Positions 5,005 through 28,493 of a DNA stretch of 64,000 nt are shown one piece after another. A program made the translations under genes and the position numbers. Within the stretch, counting starts at the first letter, position 1, and each line of letters opens with the position of its first letter. The notes beneath the pieces are model-generated. The model was not told where the DNA came from, did no database searches, and saw nothing but the letters and a program-made list of their open reading frames with translations. Source of the stretch: a virus (lineage: Duplodnaviria; Caudoviricetes); IMG/VR virus record IMGVR_UViG_3300046804_003398; one strand, given 5' to 3'.

Positions 5005-5964
5005 ATGAACATATTAGTTACAGGCGGATGTGGATTTATTGGGTCTCACTTTATAGAAGAAATCATAAACAGACCCGATGTTAAAACTATTGTTAACGTA
5101 GATTGCATGACTTATGCGGCAAACAAAAACTTGCCATTTGAGTCCAATCCAAAGTATATTCACCATCAATTAGACATCAGTAAAGATTCACTTCTCGGAT
5201 TGTTGAAGGGATATGATATTGATAATGTCATTCATTTTGCAGCTGAAAGTCATGTTGACAATAGTATCAGTAATGCTGGTCCATTCATACAAACAAATAT
5301 TATAGGCACCCATAACATTTTGGTGGATTTGTTACAGTGGAAACAACAAAAGAACTTTAGGTTTGTTCATGTATCAACTGACGAAGTATACGGAACGTTA
5401 AACAGCAAAGAATCAGCATTTAGTGTTGATAGTCCGTATCGTCCAAATAGTCCATATGCGGCTAGTAAAGCGGCTAGTGACTTGTTGGTGAGGAGTTACG
5501 TCAGAACATACAAGTTGCCAGCTATTATCACCAACTGTAGCAACAACTATGGTCCTCGACAGTTTCCAGAGAAGATGATTCCATTGTGTATAGAACGTCT
5601 CAAGAACAAACAACCAATTCCTTTGTATGGAACTGGTCAAAACGTAAGAGACTGGATTTACGTAAAAGATCATGTGAGAGCACTATGGACCGTATTACGT
5701 GAGGGTATTATAGGAAAACAGTATTTGATTGGTGGCGATAATGAAGTAACCAATTTTGAACTGATTCATTGCATACGTGATGCCTACAGATCAATTACTG
5801 GTATTGACCCAGAACAATGGGAATGGTTTAAATACGTCGAAGATAGAAAAGGTCATGATCTTCGTTATGCAATTGACACATCCGATTATAAACTTGAATT
5901 CTCACGATTGGAATTAACAGATTTTAATCAAGCGCTTTCTGACACAATCAGGTCATATTTATAA
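5005..5964 (+). CDS. rmlB: dTDP-glucose 4,6-dehydratase
   Basis: VTGGCGFIGS, HFAAESHVDNS, HVSTDEVYG, PNSPYAASKA, SNNYGPRQFPEK, RDWIYVKDH, DRKGHDLRYA. Confidence 0.95.
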   Translation: MNILVTGGCGFIGSHFIEEIINRPDVKTIVNVDCMTYAANKNLPFESNPKYIHHQLDISKDSLLGLLKGYDIDNVIHFAAESHVDNSISNAGPFIQTNIIGTHNILVDLLQWKQQKNFRFVHVSTDEVYGTLNSKESAFSVDSPYRPNSPYAASKAASDLLVRSYVRTYKLPAIITNCSNNYGPRQFPEKMIPLCIERLKNKQPIPLYGTGQNVRDWIYVKDHVRALWTVLREGIIGKQYLIGGDNEVTNFELIHCIRDAYRSITGIDPEQWEWFKYVEDRKGHDLRYAIDTSDYKLEFSRLELTDFNQALSDTIRSYL

Positions 5965-10498: not shown

Positions 10499-10565
10499 AT
10501 GAAATATATAATGTTGATATGATTCTTTTGGGTTATTTTAATTGAGTCAGACATATTTATAAGAT

Positions 10566-11501: not shown

Positions 11502-11566
11502 AAATAGTTATTTGGTTAAAAACCCACACATAACAGTAACGTATGGATATTTATAAGTATTAGTCT

Positions 11567-13298: not shown

Positions 13299-13316
13299 TA
13301 GATAATTAACTCACCC

Positions 13317-13381
13317 AAACCCTTCTTCTGTTCCGTTGACTACTTATTAGTATGGGTAAGCAACGATCAAAAGAAGGGTTT
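13317..13381 (+). promoter_or_regulatory. mRNA hairpin occluding the start of the GIY-YIG-type nuclease gene
   Basis: AAACCCTTCTT(13317-27)/AAGAAGGGTTT(13371-81) perfect 11 bp; CGTTG/CAACG; TACTTA/TGGGTA around the ATG at 13352. Confidence 0.65.
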
Positions 13382-13681
13382 ATTTATATCATTAGCAATA
13401 GTGCTTTCCCCAATTTTTACAAGATTGGGGTTACTAATGATATAAAGAGTCGTTTGCGCACCTATCAAACCTCATCACCCCATAGGGATTATCGTATAGA
13501 ATATTACATACAGCACCCAGATTGTTATGGGGCAGAGCAAAAGATCAAAGAAATGATGAGGCATTTTGCTTTAGAAATTCGAAATGAATGGTTTAAAATC
13601 GACTTAAATATAGCAAAAACCAGACTGGATGAAACTTTAGATCCAGAAGAAAAATTTCCTATTGACATTTATAATAAGTGA
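13352..13681 (+). CDS. GIY-YIG superfamily (T5orf172-like) endonuclease
   Basis: GFIYIISNSAFPNFYKIGVT, SRLRTYQTSSP, AEQKI, NEWFKI. Confidence 0.85.
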   Translation: MGKQRSKEGFIYIISNSAFPNFYKIGVTNDIKSRLRTYQTSSPHRDYRIEYYIQHPDCYGAEQKIKEMMRHFALEIRNEWFKIDLNIAKTRLDETLDPEEKFPIDIYNK

Positions 13682-14986: not shown

Positions 14987-15059
14987 ATAAATATAAATAT
15001 CTCGGTCCAACTATATTCACGAAAATAAACGACGTTAATTGTGGATTTTCATATTTATA
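14987..15059. promoter_or_regulatory. Back-to-back TATTTAT motifs driving divergent genes
   Basis: Minus-strand copies at 14987-14999 before 14976; plus-strand TATTTATA at 15052-15059 before 15066. Confidence 0.5.
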
Positions 15060-22139: not shown

Positions 22140-24359
22140 TCAACCAATTGCGTAGTTAAACCCAAAGTATTCGTTCTTATTTTTTGCGTATTGAGCAAAT
22201 GCTACTGCATTTGTTTTCATTCGTCGTTGAATTTGAGATGGACCACTTTTTGCATTTTGGTGATTCAAGTATTCTCTCGCAGCATTAGTCCAATCGCCAC
22301 TGTTCATCAATCCAATTGTTTTTGGTCCAATATCTCCTCTATACAACGCATTTATAATTGCGTTTTTGACATATGTTGGTAGACTTGTAAAATTACTAAT
22401 TTTCTTGGATGCTAATTTTTCTTTGGTCTTAACATCCACGTTAAACAACTTTTCAATTTGATCGTCTGTAAGTTTTTGTTGACCATTTAATACTTTATCA
22501 TAATCTACAGTATTTCCGAACAAAGCCTTAAATAATTGACGGTCTTGTTGACTATTATTTAGATAGTGACCAATTCCAATCGTAGGCAAACCAGCACTAT
22601 CTTTATAGACAGTATCTTTTTTGCCTTCCCAATGACCTATATAATCACTTGTTTTTTTGTTCAACAAAGAGGCCTCTGAATTTTTTATAGAGGTTTGTGT
22701 TATCGCAGGTTTGCCGGCGACTTTCGAGGCAGCAGCTTGTAACTTATCGCCTCCAGCCAAAGCCCCCAATCCAATTGCTCCGGCAGCAACCCAGTCTTTC
22801 CAACCTTCTTCAAGTTCTTTTGCAATTCTCACTTCGTCCAGCTTTCTACCTTCTGGACCAAAGTGATCTAGGTGGTGATACACATCGTCCAAGTATTCAC
22901 CGGCCAAGTTCAACTTAGCTTTCACCCAATCTTCCAACTCAGAATTTGGTTGCAACATCGACTCCAACTCTTTTGCGTCATTGTTGATTTGTTTCAATGC
23001 TCCCATAGCCATGCTACTATTGAACTCTTTCAACAACTGATTGGTAACTTCTTTATACACTTCTCTCACTGGTTTACTCTTTGTGTGTTTACCAGCTTTT
23101 CTTAACTGTCTAGCTCTACAATGAGCCTTTTGACCAAATCCCTTTGGATTGCTACAGTCTATGCTTCTCTTATACTTCATAGACCATTTCTCACTGATTT
23201 GATCAATTGGAGTTCCAGCCTCCTTTTCGTCTTGATAAAATTTCAAATAATCTCTGACTGTAGCTACATAATCACAAGCATGATTCAACTTAGCCTTTAC
23301 CCAGTCTTCCAAGTTATCATTTACATCAAACATCGATTGTAGTTCATCACTATATTTGATGATCTTATTCACATCACTTTGTGCCATCTCAGCATTTTCA
23401 TTTAACGAAGAATCTGTCCAGTTCTTGACATCAAGTTTTCCCTTTTGGTGTAATTTAGTCAAATCTGAATAATGAAACGAATACTTGTATAAGTCTTTCA
23501 ACCTCTTGGTCAATTCTGGAAATTGTTTGCCCAAACCAATCAACACTGTATCCACAGAACTTTGAGTCACTATATCTTTTGCTGGCGTTTTGGCTTTACC
23601 GAGAAGTTTAATCTTCTCCAACTTGGATATCAACTTCAAAGCATAGTTTTTATAAGCTTGATATGATTGATAGTTGGTCATAGCTACGTCGTTTGATTCA
23701 GTCATATTTCTAAGTTTTTGTAATGCTTTTGCGTAACCAGCTGGTAACTCTGATGCTCTCATGTGTGCTGTTTTTACGAACTCTTTTTCTTTCTTGGACA
23801 ACTTTGGTTTTTCAGATGATATCTTTGGACTAAATCCACTTACCAACTGAAACTCACTTGATGGACCAGTTCCGGCCATACCCATTTGAATATATGTGGC
23901 ACTAGATGGAAACTTGGTGAGATACTCCTTGAGTGCGTCATATTGATTTTGTGTAATGGCTGTATTCCATATACCCACAAAATAGTAATTCTTGTTGTGC
24001 AGATTCACAAGCCATGCACGACCACTCAAACATGTTTTTCTCAAAAATACCATGTCATCTTGATCCGCATACTTTTCTTTTCTTATGTCTTGTAGTTCTT
24101 TACTACTTGCCAAAACAGTTTCTTTATGATCCGATCCTTGACCACCTTTTAAGATCAATTTTTTATCACCGTCTGCATAAATGATAAAAGCATAACCATT
24201 TTCTTCGGTTGCTTGATACACCGTCTCAAACTTCTTCAATCCCAAAGAAAATGCTTTAAGGTTAAAACCCCGAGCAGATGGTGGTGTCCCCAGCCTGTCG
24301 CCGAAGCCACTCACCATATACTCGGAGTTTCCTATTTTGATCGGATATGCTTTGTCCAT
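22140..24359 (-). CDS. Modular head-type polyprotein with C-terminal T4-type (GH24) lysozyme
   Basis: WEGKKDTVYKDSAGLPTIGIGH has the E/D(+9)/T(+15) spacing of T4 lysozyme; two LEDWVKAKLN repeats; KWSMKYKRSIDCSNPKGFGQKAHC module. Confidence 0.8.
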   Translation of the reverse strand: MDKAYPIKIGNSEYMVSGFGDRLGTPPSARGFNLKAFSLGLKKFETVYQATEENGYAFIIYADGDKKLILKGGQGSDHKETVLASSKELQDIRKEKYADQDDMVFLRKTCLSGRAWLVNLHNKNYYFVGIWNTAITQNQYDALKEYLTKFPSSATYIQMGMAGTGPSSEFQLVSGFSPKISSEKPKLSKKEKEFVKTAHMRASELPAGYAKALQKLRNMTESNDVAMTNYQSYQAYKNYALKLISKLEKIKLLGKAKTPAKDIVTQSSVDTVLIGLGKQFPELTKRLKDLYKYSFHYSDLTKLHQKGKLDVKNWTDSSLNENAEMAQSDVNKIIKYSDELQSMFDVNDNLEDWVKAKLNHACDYVATVRDYLKFYQDEKEAGTPIDQISEKWSMKYKRSIDCSNPKGFGQKAHCRARQLRKAGKHTKSKPVREVYKEVTNQLLKEFNSSMAMGALKQINNDAKELESMLQPNSELEDWVKAKLNLAGEYLDDVYHHLDHFGPEGRKLDEVRIAKELEEGWKDWVAAGAIGLGALAGGDKLQAAASKVAGKPAITQTSIKNSEASLLNKKTSDYIGHWEGKKDTVYKDSAGLPTIGIGHYLNNSQQDRQLFKALFGNTVDYDKVLNGQQKLTDDQIEKLFNVDVKTKEKLASKKISNFTSLPTYVKNAIINALYRGDIGPKTIGLMNSGDWTNAAREYLNHQNAKSGPSQIQRRMKTNAVAFAQYAKNKNEYFGFNYAIG
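22909..23312 (-). repeat. Intragenic duplicated ~50-aa module (LEDWVKAKLN)
   Basis: MAQSDVNKIIKYSDELQSMF..NDNLEDWVKAKLNHACDYV vs MAMGALKQINNDAKELESML..NSELEDWVKAKLNLAGEYL; DNA cores at 23284-23312 and 22909-22936. Confidence 0.8.
24265..24330 (-). other. GC-rich 66-nt rod-like RNA hairpin within codons ~10-32 of the lysozyme polyprotein
   Basis: AAACUCCGAGUAUAUGGUG/CACCAUCUGCUCGGGGUUU (18 of 19 paired), GUG/CAC, CUUCGGC/GCUGGGG, loop GACAG; 5 G-U pairs valid only on the mRNA strand. Confidence 0.7.
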
Positions 24360-24360
24360 A

Positions 24361-25665
24361 TTACTTCTTCTTCTTGAACTTACTCAAGGTCATTGCCAAT
24401 CGAGCACGTTGACCCAACTTGCCACCCTTCTTTGCGGCAGCTGCCAACTTAGCCTTTGGAATTTTTTCACCTTGTGGAACGTCCAATTGCTTGTGTAGAG
24501 CACCTTTCTTGGCTGGCTTGATTGCGTTCTTGATCCACTTCTTCTTGGTCTCTTCAATTTCCTTGGATTGTTCAAAGGTAATTTCACCAAGAGCTTCTTC
24601 ATCAGCACCTTCATCACCAGTGTCAGTGGACATTTGGGTCGCAGGAGTTTGTTCAGTTTCGTCACCACCAGTTTCTACTTCACTGTCAGATGGTGGTAGT
24701 TGATCAGCATCTTGAGTTGGAGCAGATGCTTGTGGTTCATCACTTGGTGGCAACTCGTTTCCTTCTGGAGCAAGTTGAGTCATCAAAAGATCATGCAACT
24801 TTTGTGCTAGATCTTTGTCAAGTGTGATAGTTACTGATTCTTGGTCAGCACCAACTTCTACTGGTTCGTCACCACCCTCTTGTTCACGAAGGTGCTTACG
24901 AATGATTTTCTTGATTGATTCTTTTAATTGTTTTTCTTTCATAGAGTAATGTTTGTTTTCTGCATATCCGACAAAATCGTATCCACTTCCGTATGTTCCA
25001 AGACCTTCAGGCGATGCTTCGGCTGGACTTGGACCATCGAAAACTTGTGAGACAACACTTTCACTTGGTGTTGATTCTTCGCTCATTCTCCAACCACCAC
25101 CTTTGGATTTATACCATCTAGCTGCCCAACCATTTGCATAGGCACTTGGATAAACATCAAACTTGGATCTAGCAGCTGCTTTTGCTCTTGCCCACAAAGC
25201 TGGATTTGTTGGTTTTGGTTTTTTCTTCTTACTGGCTTCTTGTAGTTGTATGTCGATGGTTTTATTGTGTTTACCTTCTCCATCAAAAGGATTGTTTGAT
25301 TTGTCAATTATTGGTGTGCTAGCTCTACCATCAACTTGACCATCTGATGTTCCACCAATACTACCTTTTACATTGCCTGGTCCTACACCATCTTCACCAA
25401 CTCTGGCTGGATCATTGAAACTTTGATCTGGGTCACCCAAACCAGAACTAGCAGATCCACCAAATTCGTCAGCCAAACCAGCCTTGATTAATTTGGTATA
25501 ATATTCAGGATCTTCGGTCAAATGATCCAATGCAATTTCTTGAGCAATCTTAGGATCATTGGTATGTTCCATTTCGACTTGAATACCAACACTGAGTTGA
25601 GTTGGATCAACGTCACCTGGATTGGTTAAATCACCTTTACCGCCTCCTAAATAGTTTATCTTCAT
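24361..25665 (-). CDS. Modular head-type polyprotein (DUF5661-like, DUF5872-like, acidic linker, basic C-terminal peptide)
   Basis: GIQVEMEHTNDPKIAQEIALDHLTEDPEYYTKL; NPALWARAKAAARSKFDVYPSAYA..WYKSKGGGW; KKWIKNAIK...GALHKQL..KIPKAKLAAAAKKGGKLGQRARLA. Confidence 0.7.
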   Translation of the reverse strand: MKINYLGGGKGDLTNPGDVDPTQLSVGIQVEMEHTNDPKIAQEIALDHLTEDPEYYTKLIKAGLADEFGGSASSGLGDPDQSFNDPARVGEDGVGPGNVKGSIGGTSDGQVDGRASTPIIDKSNNPFDGEGKHNKTIDIQLQEASKKKKPKPTNPALWARAKAAARSKFDVYPSAYANGWAARWYKSKGGGWRMSEESTPSESVVSQVFDGPSPAEASPEGLGTYGSGYDFVGYAENKHYSMKEKQLKESIKKIIRKHLREQEGGDEPVEVGADQESVTITLDKDLAQKLHDLLMTQLAPEGNELPPSDEPQASAPTQDADQLPPSDSEVETGGDETEQTPATQMSTDTGDEGADEEALGEITFEQSKEIEETKKKWIKNAIKPAKKGALHKQLDVPQGEKIPKAKLAAAAKKGGKLGQRARLAMTLSKFKKKK

Positions 25666-28446: not shown

Positions 28447-28493
28447 ATGTATATAAATATGAACAATTACACAAACTCACCATAAAAAGATGA

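Follow-up and report, generated by a model that had tools for sequence, protein, structure and literature searches.

Why do the first codons of a phage lysozyme gene fold, as mRNA, into one very stable hairpin, and what might such a structure do there? The stretch of viral DNA that was analyzed, 64,000 nt in length and referred to here as the window, has a gene content that fits a T4-related jumbo phage, and the hairpin lies just inside the second of two adjacent genes on its minus strand. The features on which the analysis turns are as follows.

24361..25665, minus strand: upstream gene encoding a 434-aa DUF5661 protein, the same neighbor in most relatives.

24357..24363, minus strand: stop-start junction TAA-T-ATG, without a Shine-Dalgarno sequence.

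22140..24359, minus strand: lysozyme-fusion gene hosting the hairpin, encoding 739 aa with a conserved N-terminal domain, helical repeats, and a C-terminal GH24 lysozyme.

24265..24330, minus strand: RNA hairpin of 66 nt and 28 pairs, defined by its fold and the one site in the window found by covariance model R1.

24278..24317, minus strand: hairpin core (alignment columns 14–53), in which the Met15-Val16 codons pair with the Pro26-Pro27-Ser28 codons, together with the inner stem and loop.

The stop codon of the DUF5661 gene and the ATG of the lysozyme-fusion gene (at 24359) are separated by 1 nt; in most other lineages the lysozyme gene starts with TTG, 1–15 nt past the upstream stop. Shine-Dalgarno-like motifs were found for only 4 of the 76 ORFs in the window. 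At the C-terminus of the fusion protein, residues 576–713 comprise a GH24 phage lysozyme domain (PF00959), which also belongs to phrog_7 (endolysin). The conserved N-terminal domain, consisting of the first 120–180 residues, has no Pfam family, no PDB sequence match, and no Atlas hit, and its AlphaFold model (pLDDT 70) gave no structural match. A blastn search of GenBank phages with the two-gene region returned no match.

The preliminary description of this locus, which was made from the letters of the window, had drawn the hairpin over 66 nt, and the segment folds exactly as drawn, with 23 Watson-Crick and 5 G-U pairs, two 1×1 internal loops, one bulged A, and a terminal loop of 5 nt. Within the host ORF it begins at the third base of codon 10 and ends at the second base of codon 32 (nt +30 to +95 from the A of the ATG). 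Its minimum free energy is −40.7 kcal/mol (z = −8.09), and none of 200 dinucleotide shuffles was equally stable. The description had also held that the G-U wobbles work on the coding strand only, which was borne out: the antisense RNA folds at only −22.8 kcal/mol. For the sense strand, DNA parameters yield a fold of only −18.3 kcal/mol. When the segment was folded in a 221-nt context, the stem was unchanged, and the start region of the host gene lay outside it and unpaired. Among 25,574 overlapping 70-nt segments covering both strands of the window (mean −9.8 kcal/mol, standard deviation 3.7 kcal/mol), the hairpin was the most stable at −40.8 kcal/mol, with the runner-up at −27.8 kcal/mol. A whole-genome fold scan of a 304-kb relative identified numerous stems with energies between −34 and −43 kcal/mol, most of them in an apparent RNA-gene region, among which the lysozyme hairpin ranked about 14th; its outlier status is therefore specific to the lower-GC genome of the window.

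The GC content of the hairpin is 0.58 and that of the remaining ORF 0.37, in agreement with the GC-rich segment first noticed, and the six codons that had been called rare elsewhere are so: across the 76 ORFs of the window (20,086 codons), TCC, GGC, AGG, CTG, GGG, and CGG account for 0.08, 0.11, 0.06, 0.07, 0.04, and 0.02 of their synonymous classes, or 2–11% each. Seven of the 23 codons in the hairpin are of these six types, which are largely the G+C-rich codons that pairing requires. The encoded peptide, V-S-G-F-G ... T-P-P, has Gly and Pro residues, whose codons are by nature complementary. The peptide was held constant in two null models, the second of which also fixed the GC content. When synonymous codons were resampled by the gene's own codon usage, which preserves the amino acids, the controls averaged −13.4 ± 3.1 kcal/mol, placing the hairpin far below the codon-preserving controls that had been proposed as a check (z = −8.8; 0 of 300). 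When synonymous codons were instead chosen uniformly under the constraint of the observed GC count, the controls averaged −18.1 ± 3.1 kcal/mol (z = −7.2; 0 of 300). The rejection of both nulls implies that codon choice is bent towards pairing.

Using residues 1–180 as a protein query, we identified 39 homologs with 52–96% identity in freshwater and marine metagenomes, some of them on contigs of 100–305 kb. DNA retrieved from 45 loci yielded 26 distinct 66-nt segments, which were aligned without gaps. The hairpin occurs at the same place but with a different sequence in about eight lineages, the stems of the other lineages having 19–24 pairs; every lineage with a hairpin retains the core columns 14–53, and the register of the inner stem differs by one position from lineage to lineage. 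Against codon-resampled controls, 14 of the 26 segments were more stable than all 300, and four more were more stable than at least 295. The GC-matched null gave z-scores of −3.0 to −7.6 in 12 of the 14 sequences to which it was applied, the two not reaching significance being L005 and L013. The sense strand folds more stably than the antisense strand in each of the 22 sequences that bear a hairpin, the means being −29.0 and −19.4 kcal/mol, respectively.

The hairpin is absent or weak in L005/L027, in L013, and in four distant, A+T-richer homologs (L039–L042). One of the latter, L042, has the same gene junction, yet no significant hairpin. In two others, L040 and L041, a small ORF lies between the DUF5661 and lysozyme genes, and a weak candidate stem (−19.4 kcal/mol) was found in L040 and none in L041. 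In a protein tree of the residues that follow the hairpin, the terminal clades are well supported and the backbone is unresolved; lineages with strong, weak, and no hairpins are scattered across it.

Covariation in homologous genes, a further check suggested in the preliminary description, was found, with compensatory double changes at seven pairs. In the 12 sequences that share the register of the window, 88.7% of cells pair, compared with 38–46% when the partners are slid by 1–3 columns; seven pairs have changed on both sides (1 of 500 shuffles), in a total of 15 cells (0 of 500). Nine sequences have a second register in which the helix is shifted by one, and here 89.5% of cells pair, compared with 44–52% after sliding; within this set of nine, four sequences have C-G at pair 25-42 and another four have U-A. 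Examples of paired changes, with their effects on the protein, are given below.

Pair 22-46, U-A to C-G or A-U: third positions of Ser17 and Thr25.

Pair 31-37, C-G to U-A: synonymous, in Gly20 and Arg22.

Pair 15-52, U-A to C-G: Met15 to Thr, with a synonymous change in Pro27.

Pair 26-42, to U-A: Pro19 to Ser, with Gly24 to Glu.

Pair 3-64, A-U to G-C: Asn11 to Gly, with a synonymous change in Gly31.

Some pairs of the stem are maintained via paired amino-acid replacements on both arms. When the arms were swapped between eight lineage representatives, a comparison that does not depend on register, the chimeric stems averaged −22.4 ± 1.7 kcal/mol, compared with −28.8 kcal/mol for the native combinations (0 of 5000 permutations).

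Synonymous diversity is not reduced in the hairpin codons (0.43, compared with 0.41 elsewhere), which, given the null models and the arm swaps, we read as turnover with compensation and not as absence of selection. RNAalifold recovered almost no consensus over all 26 sequences because the register differs between lineages and the four distant sequences lack the stem. Synonymous turnover combined with register slip indicates selection for a stable stem at this place rather than for a site that a protein recognizes by its sequence; the trait that is kept is stability at a fixed position, not a particular sequence. Selection on RNA structure, which the preliminary description had suspected from codon choice, is thus upheld by the codon-level nulls, the compensatory changes, and the co-evolution of the arms in homologs, and there is strong support that it acts on the RNA of the sense strand. 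The hairpin is a real, single-copy, gene-specific mRNA element.

Does it belong to a known class? Rfam returned no matches at gathering thresholds for the whole window, and between 24000 and 24600 only chance-level matches of at most 17 bits (cut-offs, 39–104 bits), so the surmise that the element is an unrecognized cis-acting RNA stands in as far as it matches no Rfam family. Covariance model R1, built from 12 sequences, identified one site in the window and one each in the related 304-kb and 173-kb records, and a dispersed palindromic repeat of the REP type was rejected on this basis. We also rejected a −1 frameshift stimulator, which would be expected to have a slippery heptamer 5–9 nt upstream and an alternative-frame ORF downstream: no X XXY YYZ heptamer precedes the stem, the peptide is conserved in frame, and there is no other minus-strand ORF of at least 50 aa within 22140–24359.

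Two further precedents are also distinct from the hairpin. In T4, the genes e (lysozyme), soc, 49, and I-TevI carry inhibitory stem-loops at their translation initiation regions; the Shine-Dalgarno sequence, the AUG, or both are enclosed in these stems, and the 5′ arm houses a late promoter, transcripts from which do not include the stem in the gene e type (PMC3014915). The hairpin resembles that of gene e in that, in a T4-related phage, the sense strand of a lysozyme-domain gene forms a 5′-terminal stem that plausibly keeps a wall-degrading protein low. In contrast to gene e, the start codon here is unpaired and 30 nt outside the stem (ATG at 24359, stem 24330–24265), and the late promoter TATAAATA, which has 12 matches in the window, has none between 21000 and 27000 and thus none in the module; an initiation stem of this type was rejected. 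Ribosome termination structures, the second precedent, are likewise stable structures downstream of a stop codon, with the effect of reducing expression of the next gene, but their signal is centered about 9 nt past the stop and is depleted at gene spacings below 25 nt (10.1101/2020.02.10.941153). With a spacing of 1 nt between the genes and a stem that starts 31 nt past the stop, the hairpin does not fit this class, which was rejected as well.

The hairpin is therefore uncatalogued but of a kind already known, namely the cis-acting mRNA stems found at cistron boundaries or in 5′ coding regions; what is unusual is that it is maintained partly by paired amino-acid replacements. Functional RNA structures within coding regions are hard to prove, and few have been documented in phages. 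The present case is unusually clean, with extreme z-scores under codon-preserving nulls, compensatory changes in several lineages, and strict sense-strand polarity, and it could seed a new RNA family. It is placed between two conserved genes of an abundant, uncultured group of freshwater and marine jumbo phages, and it gives experimental access to how such phages set the dose of a lysozyme-bearing protein when their hosts apparently manage without Shine-Dalgarno-based initiation.

Our preferred reading, which we hold tentatively, is that the hairpin is a processing or stability element at a cistron boundary that would lower lysozyme output relative to the upstream gene. A cis-acting stem at the border of the DUF5661 and lysozyme-fusion genes would give the two halves of a polycistronic message different fates, either by blocking 3′-to-5′ exonucleases or by being cut by a double-strand-specific RNase of the host; by either route the upstream message would end in a protective stem, while full-length lysozyme message and protein would be kept low. 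We infer in this way an effect on mRNA processing or stability and on the ratio of expression of the two genes. Several aspects of the arrangement are consistent with such a role. Because the genes are spaced by 1 nt, the structure must be encoded in the first codons of the downstream gene. The distance from the DUF5661 stop to the stem is about 30 nt in the window and about 30–45 nt across lineages, so that ribosomes finishing the DUF5661 gene do not melt the stem, and since the downstream gene seems weakly initiated (TTG in most lineages), the stem would mostly stay folded. Selection for stability over sequence also fits a nuclease barrier or a dsRNA cleavage site better than it fits a sequence-specific operator.

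Intercistronic stabilizing hairpins or processing sites are found in several polycistronic mRNAs, among them the RNase III sites of the T7 early region, the REP hairpins of malEFG, and the puf operon. As in these systems, a stable stem close behind a stop codon can set unequal stability of neighboring cistrons. Those stems, however, are located in intergenic spacers, and REP elements are multi-copy, whereas the stem described here is single-copy and encoded within a conserved protein segment, and it evolves under two constraints as a result. Closest in position is the hairpin at nt 21–95 of the E. coli betT coding region, which is cleaved by RNase III, as are further hairpins of this kind in bdm, proU, and mltD (PMC4067347). 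The phage hairpin is likewise a long imperfect stem at nearly the same place (nt 30–95, 28 pairs), and it would be predicted to lower the mRNA of its host gene; it differs from betT in lying 30 nt past the stop codon of an upstream cistron, whose 3′ end it could stabilize, and in being a putative RNase III site. Substrates of RNase III have about two helical turns (at least 20 bp) of mostly continuous dsRNA, a length that the 28 pairs provide. A search of two related records (173–304 kb) for a phage-encoded RNase III found none, and cleavage would thus need a host enzyme. If the boundary element does no more than fine-tune mRNA decay, it would be a good example of a known principle and not a new mechanism.

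Among the distant homologs described above, L042, which retains the junction without a significant hairpin, speaks against a boundary element, as may L040/L041, which, with their inserted small ORF, have no clearly relocated hairpin behind the DUF5661 gene.

The main rival of the boundary element, in our estimate somewhat unlikely, is a translational brake, in which the stem and rare codons would slow or limit ribosomes within the first 32 codons and so throttle a potentially harmful wall-degrading protein while leaving the fate of the mRNA unchanged. The location of the stem at +30 to +95 of the ORF, the seven of 23 codons of rare types, and the weak TTG start in most lineages are what such a brake might look like, and according to a preprint, distal genes of E. 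coli operons are expressed less when a stable structure lies just past a stop codon (10.1101/2020.02.10.941153). On the other hand, the start region is unpaired, so that initiation should not be blocked, and the rare codons are mostly those demanded by pairing and do not count separately. Translating ribosomes unwind such stems at modest cost.

We consider it unlikely that the hairpin is a dedicated signal for the dose or timing of a virion-associated wall-degrading protein, read by a specific nuclease or RNA-binding protein of phage or host or released as a small RNA, with pairing having driven the amino-acid replacements. If true, a phage structural-type gene would provide a clear example from nature of protein sequence giving way to RNA structure. 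A related and doubtful possibility is an operator for an RNA-binding protein, for instance in autogenous control by either of the encoded proteins, or a small, stable RNA released from the message by excision. The hairpin is single-copy and gene-specific, as an operator would be, and T4-type phages use RNA operators for gp32, gp43, and RegA (PMC3014915); against this, the loop and stem sequences vary by lineage, the register slips, and the conserved Asp21 codon accounts for any conserved unpaired motif that could be identified.

That the hairpin has no function is in our view very unlikely. It could in principle be a by-product of a Gly/Pro-rich peptide in which GGN pairs with NCC, the outcome of template-switch "correction" of a quasi-palindrome, or a hairpin acting at the DNA level: the peptide V-G/S-G-P-G ... 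T-P-P has built-in complementarity, the most distant homologs lack the hairpin, and template switching can both create and maintain hairpins (PMC8794818). Nulls that preserve peptide and GC content are nevertheless rejected in the window (z of −7 to −9) and in eleven further sequences (z of −3 to −7.6; L005 and L013 not significant), and a DNA-level structure is opposed by the low stability obtained with DNA parameters. Wherever the pairing departs from Watson-Crick, it is G-U on the sense strand, with the antisense strand weaker by about 10 kcal/mol, and a neutral template-switch origin is disfavored because such consistent polarity is not expected from a DNA-templated process.

A leaky intrinsic transcription terminator after the DUF5661 gene is highly improbable: the stem is G+C-rich and is followed by UUUU in the window, but a terminator scan does not call it, the run contains only 2–3 U in close relatives, the stems of other lineages end well before any U, and canonical stem-plus-T-run terminators are used elsewhere in the genome of a relative. 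Least probable is the start-site switch or mask of the preliminary description, in which the stem would hide the in-frame AUG of Met15, with AGGA ahead of it, and choose between two protein isoforms; both motifs were confirmed, the ATG at 24317 as codon 15 within the stem and the AGGA at 24333–24330, 12 nt upstream, but the reading is largely refuted by the comparative sequences, in which codon 15 is not ATG in 9 of the 26 distinct segments (Thr, Ile, Leu, or Lys), strong-hairpin lineages among them (ACG-GTT in L006 and L044, ATA in L022), the AGGA is not conserved, Shine-Dalgarno-like motifs are as scarce as noted above, and residues 1–14 are conserved as protein.

In most lineages, the lysozyme-fusion gene begins with a TTG codon that lies directly 3' of an in-frame stop and just upstream of the hairpin (homologous loci L005, L007, L006, L013, L017, L036, L043 and others); an ATG start is found in the window's clade only. 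As a consequence, gene callers often mis-start such genes at Met15, the in-frame ATG codon within the hairpin. Of the 76 window ORFs of at least 100 aa, only 4 carry a Shine-Dalgarno-like motif at a distance of up to 18 nt from the start codon, a scarcity that suggests a host with SD-independent initiation, such as a member of the Bacteroidota or cyanobacteria.

A recurrent word, TATTTAT(A/T), was found on the coding strand 12-23 nt 5' of the start codon in 9/76 window ORFs, compared with about 0.6 expected from the density of the motif. Examples in the window are as follows.

5956-5963, TATTTAT(A/T)
10554-10561, TATTTAT(A/T)
11548-11555, TATTTAT(A/T)
14992-14999, TATTTAT(A/T)
28452-28459, TATTTAT(A/T)

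In reverse complement, it reads as the late-promoter word of T4, and it may be a phage promoter element; no copy precedes the DUF5661 gene or the lysozyme gene of the window.

The conserved N-terminal domain is common to relatives of the lysozyme-fusion protein, and the wall-hydrolase domain fused to it varies (homologues P0025, P0030 and P0038; loci L041 and L043) among the following.

GH24 lysozyme (PF00959)
Hydrolase_2 (PF07486)
Destabilase (PF05497)

Together with homologue lengths ranging from 412 to 968 aa, these differing hydrolase domains indicate catalytic-domain swapping among the homologues. On the contig of one relative (that of homologue P0029), an IS605-type TnpB/Cas12f-like gene (389 aa) is positioned directly 3' of the lysozyme-fusion gene.

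Other stable local folds were observed in the window and in G001, the 304-kb record of a related phage (L058/L059). The second most stable in the window is at 13316-13385, with values of -27.8 (+) and -27.1 (-). In G001, the segment 212056-212122 (+), antisense to the DUF5661 gene, forms a stem of -37.5 kcal/mol; its source is a repetitive coding stretch rich in Pro and Glu, and the stem is probably incidental. At ~107-117 kb of the same record, local folds of very high stability (-36 to -43 kcal/mol) are densely clustered, in what is probably the tRNA/ncRNA region of that relative.
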